Assembly (NCBI GenBank): GCA_045592785.1
Contig: JAZNVL010000031.1
Coordinates: forward strand, 1,147-65,146
Direction: 5' to 3'
DNA length: 64,000 bases
Source of the DNA: Victivallales bacterium
GTDB taxonomy: Bacteria; Verrucomicrobiota; Lentisphaeria; Victivallales; UBA1829
Below the pieces are notes generated by a model, which did no database searches, had not been told where the DNA came from, and saw only the letters and a list, made by a program, of their open reading frames with translations. Positions 15,529 through 31,550 of the stretch are shown here, piece by piece (position 1 is the stretch's first letter; each line of letters starts with the position of its first letter). Both the position numbers and the translations under genes were made by a program.

Positions 15529-15713
15529 ATAAAAAACGTGTGATAAGGGAAAAAAAGGGTCGTGTTTCAGGTATTGAACCGGAAAAGGGAAAAAAATTCA
15601 TAAAAAAGTTAAAAAAAAGTGTAAGATTAGTCTGAAAAGAAGTGTATTACAAAAATGAGAGAGTAATTTTTGAAAAAAAGCTATGAAAAATGGCTGTTTT
15701 TGATTTTAATCAC

Positions 15714-15742
15714 TTGATTTTTGAATCATTACATTATATATT
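15714..15742 (+). promoter_or_regulatory. Sigma70-type promoter candidate for the giant-protein operon
   Basis: TTGATT (15714-15719), 17-nt spacer, TATATT (15737-15742), in an AT-rich divergent intergenic region. Confidence 0.35.
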
Positions 15743-15823
15743 AAGAACGTTGCAGTCTTTTTTTGAGAGAAAAAAACTGTGTTTTTGGATATGTGTTCAA
15801 ATAAATTTATGGAGAATATGCTT

Positions 15824-18800
15824 ATGGGAACGAAACACAAAAATTGTTTGTGTGCCGCAGCTGCGCTGTTGGCTTTCGCGATGACAATGCCGGTGACTGC
15901 CGGACCGCTCGACACCGCCAAGGAATTGTATGGTGCGGGTAAGTATGCCGAGTGCGCCAAGACTCTGGAAAAGGACGCCGTCCGTCCGGATGCGCCGCTT
16001 GAAATGCAGGTGCTTTTCATGCGTGCGAATATGCGTGCGGGCAATGCGATCTCTGCGACGACGGCAGCCGCTCAGATTTTGAAACAGATGAAGAAACCGA
16101 CATTGGATATTCTCTTTGATGCGGCGGAATCCGCCCGTCTTGCCGGAGAAGATACGGTGGCATTGAGCCGTTATCTTGCGTTCTGTAATCATCCGGATGC
16201 GGAAAAAGATAAACGCTTTATGACTGCGGCGGCGTATCTTACGGCGCGCGGTGCCTACCCCGAAGTGTTCCTGAAATATGCGAAAGCGATGGGTGCGGTC
16301 GCCATGCGTATGGATGTTCGCGGTTATTTTACAGATCTGATCAGAGCCCGTGATAATACCTCCATTGCCCGTTTCATCCCGGGGTATATGGCACTCTATA
16401 AAGACGACCAGGCAATGCTGGATTTCCTCGGCACAAACCTTTATCATAATGCAAACAATCTCGGTGCCGGTCAGTTGGGTGTGGTCAATGCGCTGTTGGA
16501 CAGCGGAATGCCGCTTCCTTATCTGGCGGGCGGTTACATTGTCCGTGCGTATGACGTCTGCAAGGTGAGCAATAGTGAACGGTACCGCATGGGTGGCCGT
16601 TATGTGGAAAAGACCGGGATGATCCCGGGGGATGAAGGGGTATATATCCTTCCTGCGATCCAGTACATTGCATCGATCGAAGATGATGTCCCGAAAACAG
16701 CGGCGGCGAAGACCTTCTTTGCCAATTATAAATATCTGTTGAAATCGAAGGATGCCGGAGCGATTTCCAAATTCATTCTCTACGTCGGCAATGCGGACAA
16801 AAAAGCATTTTCCTTTGTGAAGCCGGAAATCATGGCGAAATTGTATCGCCGTCTGCATGAGCTGCGCTATAAACCGTATACCGCTGCAAACATGGGACCG
16901 GAATACGATGCGATCATTTACAAACTTTTTGCCAATGATCAGGTCAAGCAGGTCCGTTTCCTGAAAGATATCCTGACGACACTGCCCGGTAACAGCAGTG
17001 ATGCCCGTTATCTGTTCCGTACTGACATTACCGGAAGTGCAGCCGGTGCAAAGGACAGCAACATCCGTATCTGGCTGGAATCGGTTGCAGGCAACAACAA
17101 GGAAAAAGAACGTGTTGCCGTTGTTTACAGTCTTGCTGAACTTCAAACGAACAAGTTTATGACGAAATTCTATCGCGGTGTCACGGATACAGTGGCACTT
17201 GGCGATTATGACGTCGGTACGCTGATGGCTTCGATCGCCGGCGTGAATGCGAAAGCGGCATCTTCCGTGAAAGCGGTGATGGATGGTGTCAAGATTTCCG
17301 GGAGCAACGAAAAGAACAAACAGTTGATCGCGGCGATGGCACGCATCAATACGATGAAAGAAGATCCCGGTTTTGCCGCTCTGGAAAAATTCAACGGCAA
17401 AGGCTCCAATCCGGTCTTCGCTGCGTCATCCGCCGTGCTCGCCATCGGTTACAACACGAAACGGTTGAAAGATATGGACAGCGCGGTGGAACGTTTCGTT
17501 TCCGCATACAAAGGGAAACTGCCTGCCTCCTTTGACCAGATCTCCAATCTGGAACAGCTGGCTGCCTGGAAAGTGTTCTACCTTTCTCTGCGTTATCATG
17601 GTTTGAGAGACGGCGCGTACATTCAGCGGAACCTGAAACGCTGGCTTCCCAAAATCGATGCTTACGGTGATCCTCTGTGTGCGGCTCTTGACGCCGCCGG
17701 ATGGCATGATGAACACTTGACCAGAAAATGGGTGGATGGTCTGTATGTCAATACAGTGAAAGCACTGGCTCCGTTGCTCGCAAAAGCCCCGAAGGATGTT
17801 CCTCATTTTCCTTATAGCGGATATCTGTGCAATCGTACGATGAACAAACCCAACAGCAATCAGAGTGTGCTCGTTCCGATCTATGCACGTTTCCCCCAGA
17901 TCTCTCTGGCATATCTGGGCGTCAACGTGCTGACCATGTCTCCGGACTACCTGATCAAACAGTACGAAGCGATCCTGAACAGCGGCAGTGAATATCTGAA
18001 AACGGATTATGTCTACGGTATGGCAGGTGTGCTCCGCGCGCGTGCTGCCAAAGACAAATACAACGTTCCGCTTTCCTTTGTGAAAAATCACCTTGCCAAA
18101 TACATGGAACTGTGCAAGAAAGAAAATACCTTGTCCGTCGCCGGCGAAATGGAAGTCATGTCCACCGCCAGTGCGGCTGACCGTCAGGCACTTCTTGAGT
18201 TCTACATCACGCAGGTGGCAAAGCGTACCAACAATGACCGTTTCCTGACTTATCAGACGCTTTTGACCGCCCGCGGTTCCTGGAACGCTGCGATCATTTG
18301 TACGGTTCTGGAAAAAGGCGTGAGAGCGCATTTGATCGACAACGGATTCATCAAGAACCCCACCGGCATGGTGATGAGCAACAATGCGCTTTTTGAAGCC
18401 GTGAATCAGGTGTTGGGCAACAAGGAAGCAACCCAGCCGCAGAAAGATTCTGTCAAGATCATTGCGCAGGAATTCCAGGATGCCCTTCTTGCCCGGGATA
18501 TCATTTCCAGATTTGAATCCTGGAGTTATCTTGCTCCGCGTCTGGAAGGATTCCTGGATCGCAAGAATGCGGATGCTCTTCTGACCGGCAGTGCCACGAT
18601 GGTGATTGCAGAAACGTTGAAAAGAGCGACCAATGCCTGGTATGCCACACAGTCGGTGGACCGCGTATACAAGACCATTACGGACCGTGCAGCACCGCAG
18701 ACGAAATATGTGTTCCTCACCAGCGTTTCCGGCGGGACTGCCGATTTCAACGTGGAAATGAAGAACAAATATCTTTCCGAGATCTCCAAGCTCTCCAAAG

Positions 18801-21800
18801 ATATCCCGGGGATCGTTCCTGTTCCGAAAACCGATCCGGCATACAATCTGTTTGTGGCTGTGAATCAGAAGAAGGACGGCAACGCGCTTCATGCGTGGTC
18901 CATGATCCGTGACCGTTTCCCGCTGCTGACCCAGCGTTGGAAAGAATTTGAGTTTGAATTTGTTCTGTGGGCGTTGGATATGGCGCGTACACAGAAGATG
19001 TATAAAGAAGCTGCCACTCTGGCACAGACTCTGTGGCTGGATGAAGGACGCCTCAGTCCGGAATACGCGGCACAGCTTGCATTGATCAAGGGTGATATCT
19101 ATCGTGATGAAAAGAATTATCCCATTGCAAGACTGGAATACGAAAGCTTGAACAACTCCAAGCGTTGCAATCAGACACCCGCCGGACGGATGGCGAAATT
19201 CCGTCTTGTGGAACTGCTGATCCTGACGGAAGACTTCGGATCCGCCCGGACCATGCTGGAACGTCTGACAGACTCCAACACGCTTGTTGACCAGGCAGAA
19301 GCATATTATCTGCTTGCGAAACTGGAATTTGCCAGCGATTCCTATGAACAGACCAATGAATTTCTGAAAGAAGTGTTCCAGCGCGTATACAACCATGTGG
19401 AAGGACGTCTGCTGGAAGCGACTGTGAAGTTGAAAATGGGTCGTGTGGAAGACGATGAAGTTGCCATCGGTACCCAGAAACTGGCGAAGATCCAGGTCCC
19501 GGGCAGACCGCTGATCCTGCAGATCGTGGACCAGAACCTGGGCGTGATCCGCGGCGGCAAATCGCTGCCCGTCCTTGTGACGACCACCAACGGCAAAGAC
19601 CGTGAAATCATTTCTCTGCTGCCCAGTGCATCCGATATGAACAAGTTTACCGCTAACGTTCCCACCGCGCTGGGCAGAGCTGTGCCCAACAACGGTCAGA
19701 TCGAACTGAACGGCAGTGACACGATCGAATATCAGATCGATCCTGAATTCCAGAAGGCGAACAACATTGTCCGCGGGAAGAATGTGAAGATCATCTGTTC
19801 CAGTGCAAAACTGTATGCCGGCGCGCAGCTGGCAGGCAATGATGAAACCCAGGAAGAACTCCGGTTCCAGCGCGAAATGGCGATGACCACCGGCGCCGCA
19901 TTCCGTGAATTCGGTAAAGTGATCCGCCCGGGTAATACCATTTATATCCGTGTCAATGACCCGGATATGAGTATGCACAGCAACAAGAGAGATACGATCA
20001 AGGTTGACCTGACCTGTAACTCCGGTGACCAACTTCTCGGTTTTGAACTGACAGAAACCGGGGCATGTACCGGCGTATTCGAAGGGAAAGTTCCCACCGC
20101 CATCCCGTTCCCCAACGTCACAGTTTCCAGTGCGCCGGAAGGACAGGATGTGAATGCCGTGATCAACAGCACGAAGAATACGACTTGGACCAGCAATGCG
20201 GCGGAAAAAGGAATGCAGTGGATCGAAGTCGATACCATGTCATCCCACCAGCTGAAACAGATGAACATCACGCTGCCCAACGTGGAAAGCGTGAAGTCCT
20301 TGCGGTTCTACGGATCTCTGGATTCCGGTGACGAACTGCTTTGTGCATATCCTGTGACGGCAGACGATAAGATCCGCGGCGGTCTGACCGTGCGTACGGT
20401 CGATAATCCCACGGGTGCTTACCGTCAGAACCTTGCCGGTCTGTTCAAGAAGGCGGGCGATGGTGTCTGGGTTGCCAATCCGGTATCTTACCGCAGCATT
20501 TCCAAGTCCAGATTCCGTGACCGCAATGGTCTCGTTGCCACGGAAATCTCCGGTTACTTCTATGTGCCGGAAAATATGACAGCGGAATTGAAATTCCTGC
20601 AACAGGCGAATGACGGTCAGACCTGTCAGGTCGTCATCGACAAGAAACTTGTGATGTCGAGCCGTATGAATGCCGCCGGTATCATGTCTACGAAACTGGT
20701 ACAGTTGCAGAAAGGGATCCATCATCTGGCGGTTTATGCACTTGATTCCGCGAAGAATTCCTCGGTGCAGCTCGGTATGCTCCAGGCGGACGGATCCGAA
20801 GTTCCGCTTCCGGCAGCATGGTTTGATGCCTCCAAGCACCCGGAACTGATGGAATATCTGCGTCCGAAAGGAAAGATCACGAAGACCGCGAACGGTTTCC
20901 GTGTGGATATGGAAACGGATGCAAGATTCCGTCGTTTCCGCTGGCAGTTTGATGAATTTGTGGGCAGACAGATCGAAGTGAGCAAGATCAGTGCCACGAA
21001 CCTGGAAGATGAAGCGATCCTTCCTGTGGAACATGACCTTTCCACCGGGAAAAACAATCAGACTTTGGAAATCGCGCCTGCCGACACGATCACGGTCCGT
21101 TATCATGACGAACGCCGTATCGAAGAAGACAAAGCGATCCTCGCTGATACGTTGTCCAGCTCCTTTGTCAATGCAACAGTCGCATTTGAATATGAAGAAG
21201 TATTCCTGGATGAAGAAGGCGTACCCCATTCTGAAATGAAGAGTGCGGTCCGCGTATCCAAGAACGATACCGTGACTGTCAGCGTGTACGATCCCGACTC
21301 TGACCAGTCGGAAGATCAGGAAACGGTTGACGTTGAAATCGTCACAAGTTCCGGCGAAAAGATTACGATGAAACTTCTGGAAACCACGGATTCATACAGC
21401 CGCGGAAGATTCTCCGATATTCTGAAATTCGGTGATGTTTCCGATGGAAGCAAGAATACCATCAAATTGCAAATGGGTGATACTGTGACCGCACGGTTCC
21501 TGGATAAGGAAAACAACTCACCCGGTATTCCGGTACACCGTACAGCGTTTCTGGAAAACAGTGTGACGAACCGTGTGTCTGTGAATGTATATTCAGCGAA
21601 ACCGGAAATGATCGAGGACCGCAGCGTTGCCGCCCGTGCCAAGATCAAAATGATGCGTGACAAAGGTGATAAGCGCGAAGATATCAAAATCTTCAAGGAA
21701 GTGATCTCCGTTACGCCCATCAAACAGGATCCCAAGGCGAAAGATGCTCCGGCCATTGCCAATACCAAAGCGCCGCTCCTCTTCGACGTGCTGGCTCCGG

Positions 21801-23482
21801 ACTTCGCCAAACATTCCGGCAGTGTTCTGAATGTGGAGATCCTCACCATGACAGAATTGAACGCCGCGAAGACGGAAGGACGTGATCCGAAGCCGCTGAC
21901 GGTCAAACTCAGATTGCAGCAGCTTTCCCAGTTGGCACGGACCAAGGGATATCAGACTGTCTTCAACGGGATCAACGACCGGCAGAATCTGGAACGCGGT
22001 GTGTTCACCGGTATCGTCAGACTCCAGCTCGGGTCCGCAGGTGATGAAGTCAATGACGTCGTCGCCAGCAACGAAACATACAACCTGTTGAATGTGGGTA
22101 ACAACACCGATCCCGATGCGTTCCGGATCCCCACTGTGATCGTTTCCGGTACGGATACGCTTTCCATCATCTGCAAAGGTGAGGACGGAAAAGTCCTGGC
22201 GAAACAGGATGTCCAGTTGCGGTCCGATGGGGAACTTGGACTCTACGACAAAGCATATCTCACCCCGAATCACTCGGTGCATCTGGGCCAGAACTTCTAT
22301 GTTCAGGTGTACGATCCGGACTGCGATGTGACTGCGGAACGTGACAATGTGACGGTGAAAGTTGCGGCGAAGACGGGCGATAAGATCGACCTGGTCCTTT
22401 CGGAAACGCTGCCTCATTCCGGTATTTTCTCCGGTTCCATGAAGGTGGATGTGAAACCGAAACCGCTGACTGGTGAAACCGAACCCAAGAAGTTGGAAAA
22501 CAACATTCTCTGGACCAGCTTCGGTGATAAAGTCACCTTCACTTACACCGATGAAAAACCCCTTGCCGGCAATAAAGCAATCGCTCACACGAAGGAAGGC
22601 GAAGTGGTCATCGGTTCTGACGGGGAAGTGGCAGTCTTCACCAAGAAGTTCAAAGATCCCGAAATGGCTGTGAAGACCAACTTCCTCATGGCGGAAGCAT
22701 TGTTCGAAATGGCGAAGAGTCACCGCAATATGCGTGATGAAGAAAAAGAAAAACAGGCACAGGAAGAAATCGCCAAGGGAAAACGCGTGCTGGAAGAAGC
22801 ACTGCGTGATTATCCCGATACCGCGCTCAAAGCGCAGGGCGACTTCCTGCTGGCAAACCTGGCGCAGCAGTTGGAAAATTACAACGATGCGATCGGACTT
22901 TATTCTTCCGTCCTGGCAAGATATCCGGACAGCGAATATGCGGTCAAGAGTCAGTTCCAGAAGGCAGTCTGTCTGGAAAAACTCGGGCAGTTCATCCCTG
23001 CCTGCGAAGAGTATGTGAAACTGACTTATCTGTATCCCAATGATAAGCTTGCTGCGGATGCAAAACTCCGCCTGGCGAACCATTACTACAAACAGAAAAA
23101 CTATAAGTCCTCCGCCTCCATCTTCCGGAAGTTTGCGGAACATCATCCGGATCATCCGCTGGCATCCAAAGGTCTGATGCTCGCCGGCTACTCCGCGGTG
23201 AAGTTCGAAGAACTCAAGATCAAGACGGCGGAAGCCATGAAGACGAAATACAGACCGGACTACACCACCGCGTGTAAGATCTTCCAGGATCTCATCGATA
23301 ACTTCCCGGATGATAAACAGATGCGTCCCGAAGCCATGTACTGGCTGGGTGACCTCTGGTTCAAGATAGGCGGCGATAAAGCAGCCAAGAGTTATCAGAT
23401 GCTCCAGAATCTGGTCTGGGATTATCCGGAAACCCGGTGGGCGAAACTGGCACGCGGTCGTCTCGCGGAACGTCAGGAGTAA
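15824..23482 (+). CDS. Giant secreted multidomain protein. Order: N-terminal helical/TPR region, repeated beta-modules, discoidin-like and PA14-like segments, C-terminal YbgF-like TPR array.
   Basis: Single uninterrupted ORF (track start GTG 15779). I prefer ATG 15824, with GGAGA 9 nt upstream. Signal-like MGTKHKNCLCAAAALLAFAMTMPVTAG. Repeated motif V.V.DPD...ETG..TG.F.G...GD.V...Y.D. C-terminal Y-P-D/N-S TPR repeats. Confidence 0.9.
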   Translation: MGTKHKNCLCAAAALLAFAMTMPVTAGPLDTAKELYGAGKYAECAKTLEKDAVRPDAPLEMQVLFMRANMRAGNAISATTAAAQILKQMKKPTLDILFDAAESARLAGEDTVALSRYLAFCNHPDAEKDKRFMTAAAYLTARGAYPEVFLKYAKAMGAVAMRMDVRGYFTDLIRARDNTSIARFIPGYMALYKDDQAMLDFLGTNLYHNANNLGAGQLGVVNALLDSGMPLPYLAGGYIVRAYDVCKVSNSERYRMGGRYVEKTGMIPGDEGVYILPAIQYIASIEDDVPKTAAAKTFFANYKYLLKSKDAGAISKFILYVGNADKKAFSFVKPEIMAKLYRRLHELRYKPYTAANMGPEYDAIIYKLFANDQVKQVRFLKDILTTLPGNSSDARYLFRTDITGSAAGAKDSNIRIWLESVAGNNKEKERVAVVYSLAELQTNKFMTKFYRGVTDTVALGDYDVGTLMASIAGVNAKAASSVKAVMDGVKISGSNEKNKQLIAAMARINTMKEDPGFAALEKFNGKGSNPVFAASSAVLAIGYNTKRLKDMDSAVERFVSAYKGKLPASFDQISNLEQLAAWKVFYLSLRYHGLRDGAYIQRNLKRWLPKIDAYGDPLCAALDAAGWHDEHLTRKWVDGLYVNTVKALAPLLAKAPKDVPHFPYSGYLCNRTMNKPNSNQSVLVPIYARFPQISLAYLGVNVLTMSPDYLIKQYEAILNSGSEYLKTDYVYGMAGVLRARAAKDKYNVPLSFVKNHLAKYMELCKKENTLSVAGEMEVMSTASAADRQALLEFYITQVAKRTNNDRFLTYQTLLTARGSWNAAIICTVLEKGVRAHLIDNGFIKNPTGMVMSNNALFEAVNQVLGNKEATQPQKDSVKIIAQEFQDALLARDIISRFESWSYLAPRLEGFLDRKNADALLTGSATMVIAETLKRATNAWYATQSVDRVYKTITDRAAPQTKYVFLTSVSGGTADFNVEMKNKYLSEISKLSKDIPGIVPVPKTDPAYNLFVAVNQKKDGNALHAWSMIRDRFPLLTQRWKEFEFEFVLWALDMARTQKMYKEAATLAQTLWLDEGRLSPEYAAQLALIKGDIYRDEKNYPIARLEYESLNNSKRCNQTPAGRMAKFRLVELLILTEDFGSARTMLERLTDSNTLVDQAEAYYLLAKLEFASDSYEQTNEFLKEVFQRVYNHVEGRLLEATVKLKMGRVEDDEVAIGTQKLAKIQVPGRPLILQIVDQNLGVIRGGKSLPVLVTTTNGKDREIISLLPSASDMNKFTANVPTALGRAVPNNGQIELNGSDTIEYQIDPEFQKANNIVRGKNVKIICSSAKLYAGAQLAGNDETQEELRFQREMAMTTGAAFREFGKVIRPGNTIYIRVNDPDMSMHSNKRDTIKVDLTCNSGDQLLGFELTETGACTGVFEGKVPTAIPFPNVTVSSAPEGQDVNAVINSTKNTTWTSNAAEKGMQWIEVDTMSSHQLKQMNITLPNVESVKSLRFYGSLDSGDELLCAYPVTADDKIRGGLTVRTVDNPTGAYRQNLAGLFKKAGDGVWVANPVSYRSISKSRFRDRNGLVATEISGYFYVPENMTAELKFLQQANDGQTCQVVIDKKLVMSSRMNAAGIMSTKLVQLQKGIHHLAVYALDSAKNSSVQLGMLQADGSEVPLPAAWFDASKHPELMEYLRPKGKITKTANGFRVDMETDARFRRFRWQFDEFVGRQIEVSKISATNLEDEAILPVEHDLSTGKNNQTLEIAPADTITVRYHDERRIEEDKAILADTLSSSFVNATVAFEYEEVFLDEEGVPHSEMKSAVRVSKNDTVTVSVYDPDSDQSEDQETVDVEIVTSSGEKITMKLLETTDSYSRGRFSDILKFGDVSDGSKNTIKLQMGDTVTARFLDKENNSPGIPVHRTAFLENSVTNRVSVNVYSAKPEMIEDRSVAARAKIKMMRDKGDKREDIKIFKEVISVTPIKQDPKAKDAPAIANTKAPLLFDVLAPDFAKHSGSVLNVEILTMTELNAAKTEGRDPKPLTVKLRLQQLSQLARTKGYQTVFNGINDRQNLERGVFTGIVRLQLGSAGDEVNDVVASNETYNLLNVGNNTDPDAFRIPTVIVSGTDTLSIICKGEDGKVLAKQDVQLRSDGELGLYDKAYLTPNHSVHLGQNFYVQVYDPDCDVTAERDNVTVKVAAKTGDKIDLVLSETLPHSGIFSGSMKVDVKPKPLTGETEPKKLENNILWTSFGDKVTFTYTDEKPLAGNKAIAHTKEGEVVIGSDGEVAVFTKKFKDPEMAVKTNFLMAEALFEMAKSHRNMRDEEKEKQAQEEIAKGKRVLEEALRDYPDTALKAQGDFLLANLAQQLENYNDAIGLYSSVLARYPDSEYAVKSQFQKAVCLEKLGQFIPACEEYVKLTYLYPNDKLAADAKLRLANHYYKQKNYKSSASIFRKFAEHHPDHPLASKGLMLAGYSAVKFEELKIKTAEAMKTKYRPDYTTACKIFQDLIDNFPDDKQMRPEAMYWLGDLWFKIGGDKAAKSYQMLQNLVWDYPETRWAKLARGRLAERQE

Positions 23483-23498
23483 TCAGAGAAAGAGTCGA

Positions 23499-23528
23499 TC
23501 CCCGGCGTTGGCAGCAATGCCGGGGATA
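23499..23528 (+). other. Intercistronic GC-rich hairpin without a U-tract
   Basis: ATCCCCGGC (23499-23507) pairs with GCCGGGGAT (23520-23528) across a 12-nt loop. Lies between the giant gene and the next TPR gene. Confidence 0.3.
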
Positions 23529-23560
23529 AAACAGCAACCTGTCACATCGTTGGAAATAAT

Positions 23561-25162: not shown

Positions 25163-25207
25163 TATGGTTTTTAAGATGAAGTTTAATATAAAACAGGATG
25201 AGACATT

Positions 25208-27568
25208 ATGAAAAACATGTACCGGTCAGGAATCCTTCCCCGTTTGCTCATTTGCGCAGCGGTATTCGGCACAGTCTGCACAGTTGCGGCAGACCAGGCA
25301 TTTGCACAGGCTCCTAAAAAGTCCGCCAAAACCCCGAAAAAGGGCAGAGGAAACGATATGGAGTACGATGCCCAGGCAATGCTGAAAAAGGGGATCGAAT
25401 ATCTGGAAATGAAACAGGAAGAACGCGGGGTGAAGACGATCACCCAGGTCACATTGCAGTATCCCGAATCCAAAGCGGCATTCCAGGCGGAAGTCGTTCT
25501 CGGTAATTATTACATCGAAAAACGGCAATACGACCTGGCTGTCAAACGTTTGCAGAAAGTCGCCCAGCATGAAGATCCCGAAATCCAGGCGGAAGCCCTT
25601 TACAAAATCGGTATCTGTTACTTCAATTCCGGCGAATACAATAAAGCGTTCCTCTCTCTCCGTCAGGTCACAAACAAGTTCCCCGGAAGCGTTCATGCCA
25701 ATGAAGCATATTATTACATCGGGTTGTGTCACTTCAGTTTGAACCGCTGGACACAGGCCGTGGATGCGTTGGAACGGGTGGGCACCAGCGTGAATGCACA
25801 GAACAAAACTCCCGAGGCAAAAACCGAAGCCGGACTCCTGCTGGCGGAAGCCGGACAGCGTTTGTTCGTCAAGATCCAGGACGAAGACCTGGCAGTTCTC
25901 ATCACCGAAGATTCCGGCAAGGTGCTGAAAGTTCGCCTTACCAATGAAAACGGGGATGAAGAAACCATCGAACTGGAAGGTCTGGGCAAAGAAGGTGCGA
26001 CCTTTATCGGCTCCATTGCCACACAGCCCGGCATCGCCGCAAAAAATGACGGTACTCTCCAGATCAAGGGCGGCGATAAAGTCACCGTTACTTACGTTGA
26101 TACCCATACCGATTCCGGCAAAACCAATGTGGAAGTCAAAGCCATGATCCCCATGGTCTCCACGGCTTCTGTCGGTTTCACCAGCGGTAACTATCAGGAT
26201 TACTGCTACGGTATCTTCGGCGCACAGGATTTCTTCATGCGTGTCCGTGACCTGGATAAAGACGTGACACCCCAGCCCGATACTGTTACCGTGAAAGTCA
26301 CCTCCCTCTACAAAGTGGAAAAGGAAGAAGACCTTTCCGCCGGGATCAACTTTGATGATCAGGAACCCGAATATCAGATCCGTGACACCAAAGAATTTGT
26401 GCTGAAAGAAACCGGTCCCCGTACCGGTATCTTTACCGCTGTTTCCAAAACAAATCTTCTGGAAGAACCCAGGAAAGAAGAGAAGGAAGATGTTCCTCCG
26501 GGATCCGAAGCACCTGTTGCGGCTCCTGCTCCCGCTCCTGCGGCGGCATCTGCGGATGATGACAAATATCTGCGTGTGATGAATGGCGATACCATGCAGA
26601 TCGAATATGTGGATGATGTGCACATTGCGGGGAACGAACCTGTGACCCGTATTTTCAAATCGAAACTGATGGTCGGCGAGATCTCCAACGTGCTTTCCCA
26701 GTCCCGCGAAGTGGATGACCTGGTCGTGAAGGCGAGAAAGAACCTGATCGAAAGTAAGATGCTGCTCTATCTGGCACAGATCTTCAAGGAAGTCGGTCTG
26801 ATCGAATATGCCAATGCACGCGCAGCCGAAGGTCTGGTGAAAGTGGATACGGTCCTGAGCATTCATTCCGATGCTCCGCTGGAACATGGGATCCTGGAAG
26901 ATGCGTTCAATACGAAATGGGAACTCTTCATCGTACAGGATAAGATCCGTGATGCCATCAAGGTCTGCAGTATGCTGATCAAGACATTCCCCGAATCCAC
27001 ACTTGTTGACCGCGCTCTGATGAAGATCGCCGAGATCAAGATCAAAGAAGGCGACAACCGTTCTGTGCAGGAAGGTTTGAATATCTACCGCGGTATCCTG
27101 CAGCTGCCGAAATCCGATTTGAAGGCGGAAGCGCAGTATCGTATTGCGGAAGTCTCTATGGCGGGCGCAGTGGCGAAGACCCGGGAAATGCAGGCGAAGG
27201 ACCCGACTTACAAGCCCAATTATGCGGCTGTGATGGCGGAATTCAAGAAATGCTCTGACAACTATCCGGACTCCGCATTTGCCGGAAAATCTCTGGAAAA
27301 GATCGCCGACTTCTACCTGGAAGGAAACGACTTCCAGCGCGTGATGGATATGATGGAACAGATCTTCCAGGATTATCCCGACGGCGACTTCCTGGATCGT
27401 ATGCTCTACAAATGGGCTGTTGCCGCATTCAAACTGGAACGTTTCCAGGTCGCTAATGAAAAATGCGAACAGCTTATGAGTGAATATCCCAACTCTGCCG
27501 AAGCGAAAAAGGCCAATCAGCTCCGTCAGCTGATCCGGAACCGTGTCGCAGCTCTCAATGAAGAATAA
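25208..27568 (+). CDS. Secreted protein with the order TPR, two beta-modules, TPR. The flanking TPR regions are YbgF-like and the modules are the same type as in the giant protein.
   Basis: 786 aa. Signal-like N-terminus. YPESKAAFQAEVVLGNYY TPR. Modules FVKIQDEDL...GDKVTVTYVD and FFMRVRDLDKD...LKETGPRTGIFTA...GDTMQIEYVDD. Ala/Pro linker. Confidence 0.85.
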   Translation: MKNMYRSGILPRLLICAAVFGTVCTVAADQAFAQAPKKSAKTPKKGRGNDMEYDAQAMLKKGIEYLEMKQEERGVKTITQVTLQYPESKAAFQAEVVLGNYYIEKRQYDLAVKRLQKVAQHEDPEIQAEALYKIGICYFNSGEYNKAFLSLRQVTNKFPGSVHANEAYYYIGLCHFSLNRWTQAVDALERVGTSVNAQNKTPEAKTEAGLLLAEAGQRLFVKIQDEDLAVLITEDSGKVLKVRLTNENGDEETIELEGLGKEGATFIGSIATQPGIAAKNDGTLQIKGGDKVTVTYVDTHTDSGKTNVEVKAMIPMVSTASVGFTSGNYQDYCYGIFGAQDFFMRVRDLDKDVTPQPDTVTVKVTSLYKVEKEEDLSAGINFDDQEPEYQIRDTKEFVLKETGPRTGIFTAVSKTNLLEEPRKEEKEDVPPGSEAPVAAPAPAPAAASADDDKYLRVMNGDTMQIEYVDDVHIAGNEPVTRIFKSKLMVGEISNVLSQSREVDDLVVKARKNLIESKMLLYLAQIFKEVGLIEYANARAAEGLVKVDTVLSIHSDAPLEHGILEDAFNTKWELFIVQDKIRDAIKVCSMLIKTFPESTLVDRALMKIAEIKIKEGDNRSVQEGLNIYRGILQLPKSDLKAEAQYRIAEVSMAGAVAKTREMQAKDPTYKPNYAAVMAEFKKCSDNYPDSAFAGKSLEKIADFYLEGNDFQRVMDMMEQIFQDYPDGDFLDRMLYKWAVAAFKLERFQVANEKCEQLMSEYPNSAEAKKANQLRQLIRNRVAALNEE

Positions 27569-27598
27569 TTAACATTTAACGTATAAGGAGTTTTAATT

Positions 27599-28240
27599 AT
27601 GCTCGAATTTATTTTCAATGGCGGATTTCTCATGTATCCGCTGGTCCTTCTTTCTGTGGTCGGTGTCGCCATCATGATCGACCGTGCCTGTGCATTCCAT
27701 GCGGCAGCGCGTGACAACGAGGCGTTGAAACGCGATGTGATGGAAGCAGTGGAAGACAACCGTCTGGAAGATGCAGAACAAATCTGCGCGAATGTGGGTG
27801 GTCCTGTGGCAGCCGTGCTGCTGGTGGGGATCCAGAAATTCCGTAAACTGGCGGATTCCGACCGCCCCATGAACGAAGTCAGTGATATCGTGCGTAAATC
27901 CATGGAAGATTATGCTCCGGTCGCGCTCGGTACCCTGGAACGGAATGTCAGCACACTCCCCATCGTGGCAAGTCTTTCCCCGCTGATCGGGATGACCGGT
28001 ACTGTCACCGGGATGATCGGGTCCTTCAACGCGATGGCGGAATCCACCACGCTGGAAGCGACGACGGTATCCGCCGGTATTTCGGAAGCTCTGATTACGA
28101 CCGCAGCCGGTCTGATCATTGCCATGCCTTCTGTGATCGCCTATAACATTTTCACCAAGCGTATCGATGCCAGTGTCATGGATCTTGATATGGCATGCAC
28201 ACAGCTGGTGGACTACATTGCACTGGATTACAAGAAATAA
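27599..28240 (+). CDS. MotA/TolQ/ExbB-family proton channel (canonical three-TM form)
   Basis: 213 aa. GGFLMYPLVLLSVVGVAIMIDR N-terminus and LSPLIGMTGTVTGMIGSF...ALITTAAGLIIAMP signature. AAGGAG RBS. Confidence 0.9.
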   Translation: MLEFIFNGGFLMYPLVLLSVVGVAIMIDRACAFHAAARDNEALKRDVMEAVEDNRLEDAEQICANVGGPVAAVLLVGIQKFRKLADSDRPMNEVSDIVRKSMEDYAPVALGTLERNVSTLPIVASLSPLIGMTGTVTGMIGSFNAMAESTTLEATTVSAGISEALITTAAGLIIAMPSVIAYNIFTKRIDASVMDLDMACTQLVDYIALDYKK

Positions 28241-28261
28241 TCACTGGAACGAAGGCGCAAC

Positions 28262-28708
28262 ATGATCAAACGACGCAAAAGACCGGCACTGACCGATATC
28301 GAAGTGGGTTCCTTCTCCGATATTGCGTTCCTGCTGATCATCTTCTTCATCCTTACCACGCAGATTGTCCGGCTTGTGGGCAAGACCGTGGAAATCCCTT
28401 CCGGTTCCGAATCGAAACAGGAAGAAAAGAAGGAGGACAAGAAGCAGTTAATGGTCCACATGACAGGCGCGAACAAGATTACCATCAATGATGAAACGGC
28501 GAATTTGACTCTGGATGATTTGAAAAACCGTCTGATCGCGGAAGATTTCGAATCCAAAACCAAACCGGAAGAAAAATTCGTGATCCTGGATGCCCAGCCC
28601 GACGTCCCCTACGAAGTCTATTACAAAGTCGTAATGATGATCGATGAATGCGGCGGGAAACTGGCGATCCTGGAACCGGAAGATAACAAGAAGAAAGGAG
28701 GCAGCTGA
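28262..28708 (+). CDS. ExbD/TolR-family protein
   Basis: 148 aa. FSDIAFLLIIFFILTT TM motif and a periplasmic domain. Confidence 0.85.
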   Translation: MIKRRKRPALTDIEVGSFSDIAFLLIIFFILTTQIVRLVGKTVEIPSGSESKQEEKKEDKKQLMVHMTGANKITINDETANLTLDDLKNRLIAEDFESKTKPEEKFVILDAQPDVPYEVYYKVVMMIDECGGKLAILEPEDNKKKGGS

Positions 28709-29130
28709 TGGCGTTGAGAAATAAAAAGCGCAGCGGCGGTCCTCTGCCGGTACCCACTACATCCATGGGTGATATCGCGTTCCTGCTGATCATCTTTTTC
28801 ATGCTGACCAGTAAGTTCATGCAGGAATCTCATGTGGAATATCAGAACGCAAAATCTCCGGACGTGGAGTCTATCGAAGACTTTCCCATTTCTGTCATCC
28901 TGGATTCCAAGGGTGAGATCTGGCTGCAGGGACAACCCTGCGGGTCTGCGGAGACCATGCGTATGGGTGTGGAAGTTCTCCGTGGCGACAGCAAGGATAC
29001 GAAAGTATTGTTGAAGATCCACAATGGAGCAACGCAGCAGCAATATGGTCCGGTGATCCAGAATCTGGCGCAGGCCGGAGTCAAGATCGCCTTCGTGGGC
29101 GAACGTTCGTCGGACTATTCAATCGAGTAA
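28708..29130 (+). CDS. ExbD/TolR-family protein (second paralog)
   Basis: 140 aa. TSMGDIAFLLIIFFMLTS motif. Its start codon overlaps the preceding stop (TGATG). Confidence 0.85.
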   Translation: MALRNKKRSGGPLPVPTTSMGDIAFLLIIFFMLTSKFMQESHVEYQNAKSPDVESIEDFPISVILDSKGEIWLQGQPCGSAETMRMGVEVLRGDSKDTKVLLKIHNGATQQQYGPVIQNLAQAGVKIAFVGERSSDYSIE

Positions 29131-29155
29131 CATATATAAACAGGAGTATATAATC

Positions 29156-29563
29156 ATGTCGGAAGAAAAAATCAATCCCAACGATCTCGTTGCCGTGATC
29201 GCAAAGCCCCGTCTTACGGTGAGCCTTATAATTTCATTTGTTGTCCACGTTGTCCTGCTGATCCTTTGTTCCATCGGATTCCTGCAGCTTTGTTTCCAGT
29301 ATAAGACCGTTCATCCGAAGGAAGCGATCAAACTGGAACAGAAACTTGCCAAAGAAGAAGCGGAAAAGAAAGAAAAAGAAGAAAAACTCAAACTTGCACA
29401 GCTCCGTGCCAAGGAAGAAGCGGAAAAGAAAGCGGCGGAAGAAAAAGCCAAACAGTCCGCTCAGCCTGCGGAACGGAAGAAAAGCAAAATCGAACAGCAG
29501 TTGGAAGAAACTCTTCCTCCCTCTTCTGCATCCGGCAGTCTTGACGGCGGTCTTTCATTGTAA
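29156..29563 (+). CDS. TonB-N-terminus-like membrane anchor with a Lys/Glu-rich coiled segment and no TonB C-terminal domain
   Basis: 135 aa. Single TM helix SLIISFVVHVVLLILCS containing S-x3-H as in the TonB SHLS motif. Then KLAKEEAEKKEKEEKLKLAQLRAKEEAEKKAAEEKAK. Only about 25 residues follow. Confidence 0.6.
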   Translation: MSEEKINPNDLVAVIAKPRLTVSLIISFVVHVVLLILCSIGFLQLCFQYKTVHPKEAIKLEQKLAKEEAEKKEKEEKLKLAQLRAKEEAEKKAAEEKAKQSAQPAERKKSKIEQQLEETLPPSSASGSLDGGLSL

Positions 29564-29585
29564 TTACAGCGGGATTTGATACACT

Positions 29586-31550
29586 ATGAATATAAGGCGT
29601 TCAAACGAAAACAAAACAGTCCGTGAAGCGGTCGCGTTCTGCATCCATTGGATCGCGTTCGCTCACGCCATGGCTGCCAAGGGTTTTCTGATCGCTTTCC
29701 GCTGGATCGGTGAAAAGCTTGCCCGGATCCCCTGGGAATTCCGGACCGCTTCCGCCGCCTTCCTTGCTGCTTTGATCCTGCTTGTCTCCTGTCTTTACGG
29801 GAATACCATCCTTCTGATGTCGGGCTGTACTGCCATTGCGGAACCGCCTGCGGAAGAAGAAGTGGAAGAAGAAGCAGAGATCGTGATCGATCCGGAAACA
29901 GAGATCGGCGAGCAGAAGCTCACGGTTTCGGAACCGGATGAATATTTTTCACCGGGTCAGATCGGTGCCTTGAAACGGTGCGATTTGGCATCTGCGGTGA
30001 CAGAGATCAAGGAAGCGCATCCCGATGGAAAGATCAAGCCGGACAAGATCATGTCCGCGTTTCAGAAACGGTATGAAGTGGAAAACTTCAACCGGGAAAA
30101 CCTGTTCTATTCCGAACATCACATTTATAAACTGCATGAAGCCGATGCGTTCCGTACGCTGAACGGGTTCCGTGCGGTCGGCTGGGTCCTGTTGGGACTC
30201 CTGCTGCTCGGTGCCGTTTTGAGTGTGGTCTCGCATTTTGTCAAGCCGCTGGGCAAGATCGCCTGGTACGCGCTTGCTGCCGGCTGTACCGGGTTCGGTA
30301 TTTACTGGCTGCTGCTGATCCTGCCCATGTTCCTTCTGCCGGAAACGCTCCTTTCCATGAACCTGAAGGATGTGGATACGGAATTCCGCAACATTGTCTG
30401 GTTTGCTTATCTCTGGTTGTGGATCCCCACACTGGCATTCTCTTTTTTTGCCTGGTTCCCGCTGTATCTTTCCCGTGTTCGCAAGGTTTACGGATTCGGA
30501 TTGCGGAAGATGGAGTTCGGCGATTTCTGGGAAAAGAATCTGAAATGTCAGGGGCAGAACTCCGGCCTTTACAAGGGCGGATACTGGGCATTCACCTATC
30601 ACTTTGCCATCCTGCTGGTGATCCCGCTCCTGGCAAAGGGCTGTTACCAGAATGACAGCTACGAGATCCCGAAAGGCGATGGCGGCGGCGTTGTGGAACA
30701 GGTGGTCCAGATCGTGAAACCCAAACCGAAGAAAGTGCGCAAATACACGTTGAATCCCAACAGTGCCATTCTTTTTGAAATTCCCAAAATGGATGACACC
30801 GTTTCCGAAGAACTGGATAAAGATACGGAAAACCTGTATCAGGCAACACAGCTTGCTTCCATGGGACCCGGCAAGAAGGGCGGCAAACCCGGCTGGCCTG
30901 ACGGGATGGAAGGCGGCAGGATCCGTTTCATCCGCTTGCAGTATCGCGGCGGTGACTGGGACCAGGATATGGGAAAAGGTGCTGACTACAACATGCTGTT
31001 GAAGATGCACGAATATGCCGGATTCAACATTGCCGACAATACGGAATCCATGGAGATTGCCCGTCTTGCCCGCTGGAAACGGGGCAAAGCGCCTCCGTTC
31101 GTGTATATTACGGGCTCCGGAAACATCCATATTAATTCCACGGAAGCCAAACAGATCCGGCGTTATCTGCTGGAAACGGGCGGTATGATCTTTGCGGATA
31201 ACGGCGGCGGTAACTTTGACCGTGCGTTCCGGAATATGCTCCGTCAGATCCTCCCGGAACTGCAGTTGATCGATATCGCCAATGACGATGTGATCTACCA
31301 GGCTCCGTTTGCGTTCCCCAACGGCGCTCCGCCGCTGTTCCATCACTCCGGCAGCCGTGCGCTGGGACTCAAGTACAATGGCCGCTGGGTGGTGTTCTAT
31401 CACCAGGGCGATATCAACGACGCCTGGAAGACCGGTGGTTCCGGAACCAGTGCGGAGGTACAGGAACGCGCCTACAAGATGGGTGCGAACGTGATCGCCT
31501 ACTCTTTCTCCCAGTATCTTGCGCTGGTACGTCAGAGTCAACTGGAATGA
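29586..31550 (+). CDS. Polytopic membrane protein with a C-terminal DUF4159-like domain
   Basis: 654 aa. Several N-terminal TM helices. The C-terminal region (about 30920-31530) reads FIRLQYRGGDWDQD...PFVYITGSGN...LLETGGMIFADNGGG...GANVIAYSFSQ, which matches my recollection of the DUF4159 pattern. Confidence 0.6.
   Translation: MNIRRSNENKTVREAVAFCIHWIAFAHAMAAKGFLIAFRWIGEKLARIPWEFRTASAAFLAALILLVSCLYGNTILLMSGCTAIAEPPAEEEVEEEAEIVIDPETEIGEQKLTVSEPDEYFSPGQIGALKRCDLASAVTEIKEAHPDGKIKPDKIMSAFQKRYEVENFNRENLFYSEHHIYKLHEADAFRTLNGFRAVGWVLLGLLLLGAVLSVVSHFVKPLGKIAWYALAAGCTGFGIYWLLLILPMFLLPETLLSMNLKDVDTEFRNIVWFAYLWLWIPTLAFSFFAWFPLYLSRVRKVYGFGLRKMEFGDFWEKNLKCQGQNSGLYKGGYWAFTYHFAILLVIPLLAKGCYQNDSYEIPKGDGGGVVEQVVQIVKPKPKKVRKYTLNPNSAILFEIPKMDDTVSEELDKDTENLYQATQLASMGPGKKGGKPGWPDGMEGGRIRFIRLQYRGGDWDQDMGKGADYNMLLKMHEYAGFNIADNTESMEIARLARWKRGKAPPFVYITGSGNIHINSTEAKQIRRYLLETGGMIFADNGGGNFDRAFRNMLRQILPELQLIDIANDDVIYQAPFAFPNGAPPLFHHSGSRALGLKYNGRWVVFYHQGDINDAWKTGGSGTSAEVQERAYKMGANVIAYSFSQYLALVRQSQLE

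Follow-up and report, generated by a model that had tools for sequence, protein, structure and literature searches.

We found that eight co-directional genes, G1 to G8, at positions 15824–31550 of the window (the whole 64-kb stretch of DNA that was analysed), form a conserved cluster that is widespread in the PVC superphylum. We have high confidence in its core, in which an ExbB/ExbD-type motor would act on a transducer that has no globular head. More tentatively, and taking the statement as a whole with its function included, we read the locus as a PVC-specific, PMF-driven force-transduction machine for the capture and import of glycans.

A conserved cluster of eight genes

The ORF listing places all eight genes on the + strand, with gaps from G1 to G8 of 78, 45, 30, 21, −1, 25 and 22 nt, as the first-pass annotation had described; the start of G6 and the stop of G5 share one base. 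The last six genes (G3–G8) are the same in independent calls on public contigs that encode an identical DUF4159 protein. A consensus scan gave a weak sigma-70-like promoter match 5′ of G1 (15714..15742, + strand, 9/12 matches), with promoter-like sites in total not above shuffled expectation, and convincing intrinsic terminators were not found between the eight genes. The window also holds a second, shorter TPR-TPR-ExbB-ExbD-ExbD cluster.

The gene order proved to be conserved in the gene-neighbourhood comparison that the first-pass annotation had proposed. ExbB-ExbD-ExbD, with both ExbD/TolR paralogues, lies immediately 5′ of the DUF4159 gene in all 68 related loci, and in 62 of the 68 the ORF at the G7 position is 120 aa or longer. 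Where there was sufficient upstream DNA (55 loci), the full order giant-TPR-TPR-motor-anchor-DUF4159 is kept in 46, each with a G2 homologue at the same position. The related loci carry the phylum labels Lentisphaerota, Kiritimatiellota, Verrucomicrobiota and Planctomycetota, and aquatic Akkermansiaceae also possess the cluster. One MAG has three divergent clusters (L016, L020 and L035) and another has two loci (L026 and L028), the copies from each MAG falling in separate clades.

The flanking genes vary by genome (thrC, SNF/Mfd, EF-Tu/ribosomal genes, histidine kinase, FAD oxidoreductase) and are mostly housekeeping genes, such as those for EF-Tu and ribosomal proteins, Mfd and LpxK. The short gaps (−1 to 78 nt) and an order kept in 46/55 loci amid unrelated flanks support a single unit. 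The ORFs scanned in the 64-kb window gave no match to TonB_C, a TonB-dependent receptor, TolB or OmpA/Pal, which bears out the absences noted earlier, and TBDT, TolB and Pal are missing from the top families in the downstream flanks of ∼50 related loci. The genes thus do not invariably neighbour a receptor or TolB/Pal, a possibility that had been raised. An outer-membrane channel or barrel is encoded neither in the cluster nor in the flanks examined, and carbohydrate-active enzymes are not consistently adjacent to the related loci.

The motor, its proposed transducer and the DUF4159 protein

G4 (27599..28240, 213 aa) is an ExbB/TolQ-type protein (PF01618, MotA_ExbB, E 2.8e-28). Its best NCBIfam match is TolQ, at 118 bits against an equivalog cut-off of 221, and its alignments with the solved structures of ExbB and of TolQ each score ∼70 bits and bring the conserved GIsEALitTA motif into register. 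G5 (28262..28708, 148 aa; FSDIAFLLIIFF) and G6 (28708..29130, 140 aa; MGDIAFLLIIFF) are two heterologous ExbD/TolR paralogues (PF02472, E 6.8e-16 and 9.6e-15, respectively), both of which have an Asp in the transmembrane helix. Among solved structures, G5 is closest to TolR (E 5e-6, transmembrane Asp aligned). TolR is also the best NCBIfam match alongside TolQ, the scores of both being far under the equivalog cut-offs. The motor assignment is based on the Pfam matches and on functional motifs that align with the ExbB, TolQ and TolR structures. G4 is presumed to be the proton-channel subunit of a pentameric stator. Given the family membership and the Asp, Thr and Glu conserved at transmembrane positions, we infer that the machine would be built on the 5:2 motor principle of ExbB/ExbD (TolQ/TolR), with G4 as the pentameric channel and G5 plus G6 as a heterodimeric plug.

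G7 (29156..29563, 135 aa) consists of an N-terminal PNDL motif, one transmembrane helix carrying S27-x3-H31 and S39, a Lys/Glu-rich linker (41% K+E) and a conserved C-terminal peptide, LPP...LDGGLSL. It matched no Pfam family. Among 59 aligned homologues S39 is invariant, P8, L11, H31 and P122 are each at least 90% conserved, and the family shares an N-terminal PDxL motif and an acidic C-terminal ‘DLxL’ peptide, with a consensus end of P..P........DL.L. None of the 59 matched TonB_C or TolA, and none has a globular C-domain. The earlier description of a short anchor with a TonB-like S-x3-H helix and a charged rod, ending without a TonB domain, is therefore upheld: G7 shares the conserved transmembrane His of TonB and TolA but not their globular head. 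In one clade, cytoplasmic zinc ribbons are fused to the N-terminus, which fits a TonB-like N-in topology. The globular head of TonB normally docks onto a receptor. G7 may be a pared-down transducer of the TonB/TolA type, comprising a motor-binding His helix, a flexible tether rich in Lys, Glu, Ala and Pro and the short acidic peptide; docking of this peptide on a TPR domain of G1–G3 or on the predicted periplasmic DUF4159 domain of G8 would then stand in for the missing head.

G8 (29586..31550, 654 aa) was confirmed as a polytopic protein ending in a DUF4159 domain (residues 447–641, 30924..31508, + strand; PF13709, E 1.8e-34). The protein has five consensus transmembrane helices and then a disordered Lys-rich linker of ∼95 aa (AlphaFold pLDDT 83.8 for the protein); its family comprises 804 representatives at E≤1e-3. 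An N-in, C-out topology is predicted from consensus hydropathy and alternating K/R bias, and homologues that carry an FHA domain at the N-terminus agree with a cytoplasmic location of this end. The protein would therefore sit in the inner membrane, with the DUF4159 domain predicted to be held in the periplasm by the long tether. The domain itself is alpha/beta, and over 30 of its residues are invariant, none of them Cys; its sole significant Foldseek match was 4i66 (Hoch_4089; TM 0.80 on the target), besides weak glutamine-amidotransferase-like matches.

The TPR proteins

All three large proteins, G1, G2 and G3, contain Pfam TPR families and begin with signal-peptide-like hydrophobic segments, in keeping with the claim that they are secreted TPR proteins. 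G2 (23561..25162, 533 aa) matches TPR_6 (2e-13), TPR_16 and YfiO, and also the NCBIfam YbgF model. In G3 (25208..27568, 786 aa; TPR_6, 1.3e-27) a beta module lies between TPR blocks at the two ends, the C-terminal one being YbgF/BamD-like. The tol_pal_ybgF score of G3, 106.3 bits when summed over four stretches, exceeds the cut-off of 90.1.

G1 (15824..23482, 2552 aa) starts with ATG in the ORF listing, and an alternative GTG start lies at 15779. Its Pfam matches are TPR_6 (E 1.6e-17), YfiO, TPR_18 and F5_F8_type_C. The N-terminal half is long and helical, with TPR-like repeats near residues 1125–1210; the centre is beta-rich; and the C-terminus (residues ∼2300–2540) is a YbgF/BamD-like TPR domain, the match to tol_pal_ybgF being under the cut-off at 80 bits. 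Homologues (41) align over the C-terminal ∼1300 aa with a mean column identity of 31%. As residues 2104–2548 of G1 are homologous to residues 283–749 of G3 (blastp 9e-13), G3 looks like a shorter counterpart of the C-terminal part of G1.

The beta-rich centre contains a discoidin (F5/8 type C)-like module (residues 1432–1503, 20117..20332, + strand), a putative glycan-binding cassette. The first-pass annotation had called G1 lectin-like and described a beta-module. The F5/8 type C match was indeed seen but is borderline (E 4e-6, 27.4 bits against a Pfam cut-off of 28.2), and the beta-module is putative, as the AlphaFold model of residues 1215–2290 was unusable at pLDDT 39.8. What occupies the cassette position varies among homologues. 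One (P0328) has F5_F8_type_C on record, and that of L001 contains two true PA14 domains (E 2.8e-34), which MAFFT places opposite G1 residues ∼1358–1500 in a region of poor alignment (14/48 and 6/38 identities). G1, aided by G2 and G3, may form a scaffold of great length, periplasmic or associated with the outer membrane, in which the central cassette would be a lectin-type module that differs from homologue to homologue.

Known systems and possible functions

The locus had been said to fit none of the Ton, Tol-Pal and Agl-Glt systems, and their defining features are indeed missing from the 59 anchors, the ORFs scanned in the window and the top families of the ∼50 downstream flanks. The label ‘uncharacterised’ holds in that we found no experiment on the cluster in the searchable literature, but sibling PVC loci have already been described. 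[quoted passage not shown] In the order TPR-tolQ-tolR-tolR-vWA, they were read as a motor plus His-transducer by structural modelling, and a role in gliding or adhesion was suggested (PMC12204202). Their transducer is of the vWA type; the cluster here has no vWA domain. Fibrobacter FSU_2396-2403 (OmpA, TPR, TPR, ExbB, ExbD, ExbD, TonB) is similar in composition; it is raised on cellulose, and its TPR protein is part of a complex that also contains cellulases and PA14 fibro-slime proteins (PMC6851124). Akkermansia MUL1 (Amuc_0543-0548, with ExbB and ExbD), likewise similar in composition, is required for mucin import. We rejected the idea that the locus is an isolated oddity, given its spread in the PVC superphylum and the similar clusters in Fibrobacter, in Akkermansia and in the same window.

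A close rival to glycan import, although somewhat less likely, is a Tol-like system for envelope maintenance or cell division in PVC bacteria. Here TolQ-like G4, TolR-like G5 and G6 and TolA-like G7 would act on CpoB/YbgF-like G1–G3 in outer-membrane tethering or constriction and the coordination of wall synthesis, alongside a distant TolB-Pal or as a substitute for it. The best NCBIfam matches of the motor, the TolR relative of G5, the YbgF matches of G1 and G2 and the whole-protein YbgF score of G3 all favour this, as do the SHLS-like helix of G7 with its TolA-like charged linker. The neighbours are of housekeeping or envelope type, and a conserved order in four PVC phyla is what a core function would lead one to expect. 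However, TolQ and TolR score far below the equivalog cut-offs, the G3 score adds up four generic TPR stretches, TolA domain III is found in 0/59 anchors, and TolB and Pal are absent from the window and the flanks examined. Tol systems have no equivalent of the giant putative-lectin protein or of DUF4159, and two MAGs carry three and two loci. A Tol-Pal catalogue cuts both ways: it lists ‘tolQ-tolR-???- No TolA found’ for a Lentisphaerae genome, with tolB-pal elsewhere, and no pal for Planctomycetes, which nevertheless keep the cluster, but it used a Victivallis vadensis TolA, so at least one Lentisphaerae member has a canonical TolA (PMC12204202).

It is very improbable that the cluster serves surface motility or adhesion as a motor of the Agl-Glt or vWA-transducer type. 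One TolQ and two TolR components would then power a TPR scaffold across the periplasm, which would shift a surface adhesin or put it under tension. Myxococcus AglR/AglQ/AglS comprises one TolQ-like and two TolR-like genes, a make-up identical to the motor here; Glt includes large TPR proteins; and the putative lectin-type modules could serve adhesion. For the sibling vWA loci, gliding or adhesion has been suggested (PMC12204202). Against this, the cluster lacks Glt-type outer-membrane barrels, a TonB-C-like GltG/GltJ domain and a vWA domain, and cytoplasmic track or regulator genes of the MglA or AglZ type were not found adjacent. Moreover, to our knowledge gliding is undescribed in most lineages that bear the cluster.

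Likewise very improbable is an ordinary extra ExbB-ExbD energiser for a full-length TonB and TonB-dependent receptors elsewhere in the genome, with the TPR and DUF4159 genes as mere co-located accessory or unrelated genes: many bacteria have several exbBD sets apart from tonB and receptors (PMC12204202), an Akkermansia genome has such receptors elsewhere, and those of this genome could lie outside the 64-kb window, but strict co-occurrence in fixed order across four phylum labels (motor with DUF4159 in 68/68 loci, anchor-position ORF in 62/68, TPR genes in 46/55) argues for one functional unit, and an anchor that retains the motor-binding His and Ser suggests that the cluster supplies its own transducer.

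The glycan-import reading draws on the discoidin-like module of G1 and the PA14 domains of its L001 homologue. Uptake systems multiply into divergent copies, which housekeeping Tol systems usually do not, and the divergent multi-copy clusters in MAGs therefore support an uptake system. By analogy, Fibrobacter on cellulose, Akkermansia MUL1 with mucin and the uptake of polysaccharide into the periplasm by PVC bacteria (PMC13174399) point the same way. The sub-threshold lectin match, the low-confidence G1 model and the YbgF/CpoB- and BamD-like TPR domains argue against glycan import, as does the lack of MUL1 synteny reported in a 2026 paper for aquatic Akkermansiaceae, which do bear the cluster. 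With no outer-membrane channel or barrel in the cluster or flanks, the machine lacks a way through the outer membrane, and with housekeeping neighbours and no consistent carbohydrate-active enzymes a core envelope function fits at least as well. If glycan import is nonetheless the function, motor strokes would pass through G7 to the scaffold, and large glycans or glycoproteins may be captured and moved into the periplasm without a TonB-dependent barrel.

Gene content of the cluster

Eight genes follow one another on the forward strand. The first three encode TPR proteins: G1 (15824-23482; 2552 aa from its ATG, with a GTG 45 nt upstream as a possible start), G2 (23561-25162; 533 aa) and G3 (25208-27568; 786 aa). 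An ExbB/TolQ-type gene (G4, 27599-28240; 213 aa) and two ExbD/TolR-type genes (G5, 28262-28708, 148 aa; G6, 28708-29130, 140 aa) come next, followed by a small membrane anchor (G7, 29156-29563; 135 aa) and a DUF4159 protein (G8, 29586-31550; 654 aa). The gaps in the ORF table are 78, 45, 30, 21, -1, 25 and 22 nt, and for the last six genes the gene calls match in public assemblies encoding an identical G8 protein. The ORF table and the Pfam matches confirm the co-directional order, the short gaps and the TPR/ExbB/ExbD/DUF4159 content described in the first-pass annotation. Promoter and terminator scans gave no informative signal for the cluster.

The surroundings were screened by a Pfam search of long, non-overlapping ORFs across the 64-kb window. 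Upstream of the cluster are threonine synthase (opposite strand), a UPF0489 protein, a CNNM/CBS protein and a split chromate transporter; downstream are an SNF-family symporter and Mfd. Among the ORFs scanned there was neither a TonB C-domain nor a TonB-dependent receptor, and no TolB or OmpA/Pal, which bears out the absences claimed from the sequence alone.

The G4 protein matched PF01618 (MotA_ExbB; E 2.8e-28) and aligned to solved ExbB and TolQ structures with ∼70 bits to each, keeping the Glu/Thr-containing helix motif. G5 and G6 matched PF02472 (ExbD; E 6.8e-16 and 9.6e-15, respectively). Both keep the transmembrane Asp (FSDIAF, MGDIAF), which aligns to the transmembrane Asp of TolR, and for G5 the best-aligning solved structure was TolR. 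The top-ranking NCBIfam models for the motor were TolQ and TolR, with scores far under the equivalog cut-offs (118 bits against 221 for TIGR02796; 38 and 29 bits against 127 for TIGR02801), so that equivalog level was not reached. A 5:2 stator is established for the ExbB/TolQ motor family, and by analogy it would be the natural reading of G4-G6. Because both ExbD paralogues are always present, we infer that the plug would be a G5/G6 heterodimer.

No Pfam family was matched by G7. It has a single transmembrane helix with an S27-x3-H31 motif followed by a stretch of 41% Lys+Glu, as expected from the S-x3-H helix and Lys/Glu-rich rod proposed earlier. We aligned 59 homologues from the same intergenic position. 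The consensus (n=59) begins PDxL..I..S........S...H..L.G.TS.GL...YG...P and continues after the helix with a variable Lys/Glu/Ala/Pro-rich linker and a terminal P..P........DL.L. Residue S39 is invariant in the 59 sequences, and conservation is 90% or higher at P8, L11, H31 and P122. A relationship is also plain in the tails: PPEVQPLPPKKEFEYGDDLSLD; ...ERPT.S...LDLE; and ...LPPSSASGSLDGGLSL in the window. There was no match to TonB_C, TonB_2 or TolA (Pfam) in G7 or 58 homologues, nor to VWA in the G7 family, and G7 itself ends after a low-complexity linker of ∼90 aa. Judged from its sequence, G7 combines a motor-binding helix of the TonB/TolA type with a tether and, at its end, a conserved peptide; it has no head.

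In some related loci the anchor homologue is longer (220-458 aa; L018, L021, L022, L025, L032, L035, L055 and L071) and has a CxxC...CPxC zinc ribbon before the conserved helix. The Pfam family Zn_ribbon_8 was matched by five of the 59 aligned sequences, and the N-terminal ribbon is confined to part of a single clade. It suggests a cytoplasmic regulatory input and, being a cytoplasmic module, fits a TonB-like N-in orientation.

Proteins G1, G2 and G3 all matched TPR families in Pfam and have signal-peptide-like N-terminal segments. The last ∼1300 residues of G1 are kept in 41 homologues with a mean column identity of 31%, and have many invariant acidic positions in repeated beta-rich units; all 41 end in a YfiO/BamD- and YbgF-like TPR block. 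G3 is related to the C-terminal part of G1. With TIGR02795 (cut-off 90.1 bits), G3 scored 106.3 bits, summed over four TPR stretches of the 786-aa protein, and G1 and G2 scored 80 and 64.7 bits, both under the cut-off.

The first-pass annotation had called G1 lectin-like. A discoidin-like F5/8 type C match is indeed present, although at 27.4 bits it is just below the Pfam cut-off of 28.2. F5/8 type C is also found in another G1 homologue, and the homologue from related locus L001 contains two strong PA14 domains, which MAFFT places opposite G1 ∼1358-1500, where the alignment is poor. As far as domain matches can tell, the lectin-type cassette of the giant protein differs between homologues. 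For the central region of G1 a word-indexed search returned two homologues only, and the AlphaFold model of residues 1215-2290, built from three sequences, was unusable (pLDDT 39.8), so that the beta-module named in the first-pass annotation is a putative one. The family consensus had suggested a PA14-like stretch at G1 ∼1570-1650; with no Pfam match there, this reading was dropped.

The DUF4159 domain (PF13709) of G8 occupies residues 447-641 and covers profile positions 1-202 of 202 (E 1.8e-34; 119.5 bits against a cut-off of 25.9). In the AlphaFold model, built on 85 sequences (pLDDT 83.8), the membrane domain is helical and is joined to an alpha/beta domain by a disordered linker (∼352-445) that includes a Lys-rich tract. 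For the alpha/beta domain, the only significant solved match in Foldseek was 4i66 (TM 0.80 on the target), a DUF4159 protein from structural genomics. A glutamine amidotransferase-type enzyme was considered and rejected; the Foldseek matches were weak and there is no invariant Cys, making this activity unlikely. Family-wide hydropathy gave five transmembrane segments, and the Lys+Arg excess alternates (8.1, then acidic, 2.6, 2.2, 7.9), which would put the N-terminus on the inner side of the membrane and leave DUF4159 periplasmic. The fifth helix has the pattern S331-x-Y-x-(S/A)-x3-H339-x7-P347, and roughly one half to two thirds of homologues keep the His. In its C-terminal half this polytopic protein thus shows a helix-tether-head layout like that of TonB, the Lys-rich disordered stretch being the tether. 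One homologue (P0017, 929 aa) has an N-terminal FHA/Yop-YscD_cpl domain; this supports a cytoplasmic N-terminus for G8 and hints at control by Ser/Thr phosphorylation.

A second, shorter cluster is found at 2166-8792 (forward strand). It encodes TPR proteins of 1284 and 268 aa, two ExbD proteins (145 and 177 aa) and a 274-aa ExbB that has a signal-like segment at its N-terminus and an acidic stretch rich in Glu and Ala. It has neither an anchor nor a DUF4159 gene, and its motor proteins share only 28-40% identity with their counterparts in the main cluster. YdjM and a gene for a lipid A acyltransferase come after it. Other features of the window include an adjacent pair of MinD/ParA-type P-loop NTPase genes with 4Fe-4S ferredoxin motifs inserted in each (37651-39353, reverse strand), and a single 1158-aa ORF (41136-44612, forward strand) that joins an MFS transporter, an acyltransferase and an AMP-binding (acyl-ACP synthetase-like) enzyme in the layout of lysophospholipid transporter/re-acylation fusions. 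A 410-aa ORF (44607-45839, reverse strand) has a prepilin N-methylation motif at residues 172-192 instead of at the N-terminus; its real start is probably further downstream and the product pilin-like. The split chromate-transporter half genes (10705-11864, forward strand; 4-nt overlap) and a CdaA (c-di-AMP synthase)-YbbR pair (58231-60086, reverse strand) are ordinary.

Conservation and copy number across genomes

An exhaustive search with G8 gave 804 representatives at E<=1e-3 and 214 at E<=1e-30. G8 has close relatives over its full length, two of which carry the source names Kiritimatiellae and Akkermansiaceae. A scan of one genome per species gave 303 loci encoding a G8 relative, and the best 80 of the 303 were kept. 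The nearest of these 80 are from Victivallales/Lentisphaeria MAGs (53-54% identity), which makes Lentisphaerota the most likely origin of the window. The locus labels cover Lentisphaerae, Kiritimatiellia, Verrucomicrobiota and Planctomycetota (Planctomycetaceae, Phycisphaerae).

Gene order was compared by tblastn of the eight window proteins against all loci kept, counting non-redundant loci. In every locus with at least 2.5 kb of upstream DNA (68/68), ExbB-ExbD-ExbD is immediately 5′ of the DUF4159 gene, and 62 of the 68 have an ORF of at least 120 aa between the second ExbD and the DUF4159 gene. Of 55 loci with 9 kb or more of upstream DNA, 46 have all of G1, G2 and G3 in the window order. 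In three loci the giant gene is immediately next to the motor, and in six there is no detectable TPR gene upstream of the motor (L039, L042, L052, L066, L068 and L070). At L075 (7948-16017) the three TPR genes are downstream of the DUF4159 gene, not upstream.

The Verrucomicrobiales form of the cluster encodes a giant TPR protein (2456 aa), a 115-aa protein, ExbB, ExbD, ExbD, the anchor, the DUF4159 protein and a 390-aa protein. Two examples, L090 (Haloferula helveola, 244-18513) and L002, are without G2 and G3 and have the 115-aa gene between the giant gene and ExbB; 3′ of the cluster are the 390-aa protein, which has no Pfam family, an FAD oxidoreductase and a 1326-aa DUF6288/HEAT protein.

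The flanks vary by genome, with, for example, a histidine kinase and LpxK, EF-Tu with ribosomal genes, or an FAD oxidoreductase. Receptor, TolB, Pal and TonB domain are absent from the recurring Pfam families of 94 downstream ORFs from ∼50 loci, and none was found in the upstream flank of one variant locus. The gene order is thus conserved among relatives and the set does not regularly adjoin a receptor or TolB/Pal; on both of these points, either of which could have told against it, the first-pass reading of an uncharacterised trans-envelope machine stands.

One Victivallales MAG has three clusters in full gene order (L016, L020 and L035), and their DUF4159 proteins fall into three separate deep clades of a neighbour-joining tree. 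A Planctomycetales MAG has two loci, L026 and L028; the cluster can be seen in L028, whereas L026 is too short for this. Provided that the MAGs are not chimeric, paralogous lineages of the cluster are old. The cluster is real and ancient.

Comparison with known motor-transducer systems

The nearest described loci are those of a recent study (Mol Biol Evol 2025, msaf138; PMC12204202), which, starting from Tichowtungia aerotolerans, found PVC transducers in which a linker joins an SHLS/His helix to a von Willebrand A head. These share with the present cluster the superphylum and the arrangement of TPR, tolQ-like, two tolR-like and transducer genes. Their SHLS-type helix with its conserved His has a counterpart in S27-x3-H31 of G7 (H31 at least 90% conserved, S39 invariant; n=59). 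The output ends differ. Whereas the vWA loci have two transducers, each ending in a von Willebrand A domain, G7 has no globular domain and is followed by the five-helix G8, whose end domain is a DUF4159 matching 4i66 rather than the vWA of Tichowtungia-type loci. The Tichowtungia sequence printed in that study differs at its N-terminus from both G7 and G8, and a giant 2500-aa TPR-lectin protein, present here, is not mentioned for the vWA loci (PMC12204202). The present cluster is thus a sibling of the recently recognised vWA-transducer class with a different output end.

A Tol-like role in the envelope or in division is the main rival to the import reading developed below, and we regard it as doubtful. 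The case for it is built on resemblance: TolQ and TolR are the best-scoring named families for the motor, the TPR proteins have YbgF/CpoB-like domains and the charged linker of G7 recalls TolA domain II. Housekeeping neighbours and deep conservation are also in its favour, as is a Lentisphaerae genome entry in the supplementary catalogue of the vWA study reading ‘tolQ-tolR-???- No TolA found’, with tolB-pal elsewhere (PMC12204202). The TolQ/TolR scores, however, are below the equivalog cut-offs, TolA domain III is absent from the G7 family, and TolB, Pal and YbgC are absent from the window and the flanks examined. The cluster is also present in Planctomycetes, which are noted as lacking pal (PMC12204202). 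Copy number also speaks against a Tol-like role, since a single MAG may contain several clusters.

The Agl-Glt system of Myxococcus has one TolQ-like and two TolR-like motor genes and large periplasmic TPR proteins. The present cluster has the same motor make-up, its motor families being confirmed by Pfam, and similarly large TPR proteins, but a Pfam-level screen of the eight proteins and their neighbours detected neither Glt outer-membrane barrels, TonB-C-like GltG/GltJ nor genes for a cytoplasmic platform. A role in motility or adhesion is therefore very unlikely. The Ton system likewise has an ExbB-family channel, an ExbD-family plug carrying a transmembrane Asp, and S-x3-H in the helix of its transducer. 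The cluster differs in having no TonB C-terminal domain and no TonB-dependent barrel nearby (64-kb window; ∼50 downstream flanks), although a distant partner may exist, and in its two different ExbD genes, three TPR proteins and DUF4159 protein; that it is a plain spare ExbBD set is also very unlikely. We would place the cluster within the ExbB/TolQ motor-transducer kind, as a variant and not as a separate category. These genes are not covered by Kamneva et al. (2012) or by the Verrucomicrobium essential-genome paper, and as far as the searchable literature shows the cluster is uncharacterised.

Polymer-linked analogues and proposed function

Two systems connected with polymer use resemble the cluster in part. 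In Fibrobacter succinogenes, FSU_2396-2403 encode OmpA, TPR, TPR, ExbB, ExbD, ExbD and TonB proteins that are raised on cellulose, and a TPR protein of this set is in complex with cellulases and PA14 fibro-slime proteins; the evidence is proteomic only (PMC6851124). The order TPR-TPR-ExbB-ExbD-ExbD-transducer and the tie to lectin-type PA14 modules and polymer use are common to both. The Fibrobacter genes differ in belonging to another phylum, in including TonB-family and OmpA proteins, in having PA14 on separate fibro-slime proteins and in having no DUF4159.

The second is the Akkermansia mucin utilisation locus MUL1 (Amuc_0543-0548; Davey et al. 2023), in which mul1A is Amuc_0544, ExbD is Amuc_0546 and ExbB is Amuc_0548. 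MUL1 is reported to be required for mucin import into the cell. In annotation tables it resembles the present cluster in being Verrucomicrobial and in grouping one ExbB and one annotated ExbD with four ‘hypothetical’ proteins, while neither TonB nor a receptor is annotated in it; by product names alone, it differs in having no giant gene listed beside it and no product named DUF4159. MUL1 synteny is reported to be absent from aquatic Akkermansiaceae, yet Akkermansiaceae, the aquatic ones included, do carry the present cluster, which argues against simple orthology. A. muciniphila was absent from the matches listed in searches seeded with G8 and with an Akkermansiaceae homologue. By analogy, a link between the cluster and MUL1 may be taken as a lead.

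Function here is throughout a matter of what we infer. We think it very probable that the genes encode a 5:2 proton motor with its own His-bearing, headless transducer, forming one unit with the DUF4159 membrane protein and the periplasmic TPR scaffolds. For the task of this unit, we tentatively favour capture and inward movement of large glycans as a distinct possibility, because the lectin cassette varies, paralogous copies occur, two analogues are linked to polymers and the named lineages live as polymer degraders. Whatever the reading, its largest gap is the lack of any outer-membrane component encoded within the cluster or beside it.

Some TPR domains clamp C-terminal peptides. By analogy, the acidic-hydrophobic C-terminal peptide of G7 could be a docking element, with a TPR groove as its candidate receptor. 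The TolQR-type motor would then pull a periplasm-spanning TPR-lectin scaffold through the headless transducer docked by this peptide, and polysaccharides or glycoproteins captured at the surface would be dragged into an enlarged periplasm. In its widest form, which we consider unlikely to hold as a whole, the cluster would be a general, long-sought, barrel-independent engine for macromolecule import in the PVC superphylum, with MUL1 as a reduced relative. If true, this would explain ‘selfish’ uptake in Verrucomicrobia, Planctomycetes, Kiritimatiellota and Lentisphaerae. Docking through an acidic C-terminal peptide would be a mode of coupling not known for the ExbB/TolQ motor family, and a headless transducer of this type would add to the recent finding that such motors drive more than Ton and Tol.

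The DUF4159 family is mentioned, in the searchable literature, in the Pfam paper alone, and in the cluster it gains a firm functional setting for the first time. Complex and sulfated polysaccharides, in the gut as in the sea, have PVC bacteria among their major degraders. Some of these bacteria take polymers into the periplasm, as cited work reports, and the machinery for this is so far known only as a genetic locus in Akkermansia. A proton motor and lectin-bearing scaffolds in one conserved cluster make a concrete candidate, testable in those hosts for which genetic tools exist, and the cluster matters as a candidate for polymer import or envelope mechanics across the whole superphylum.
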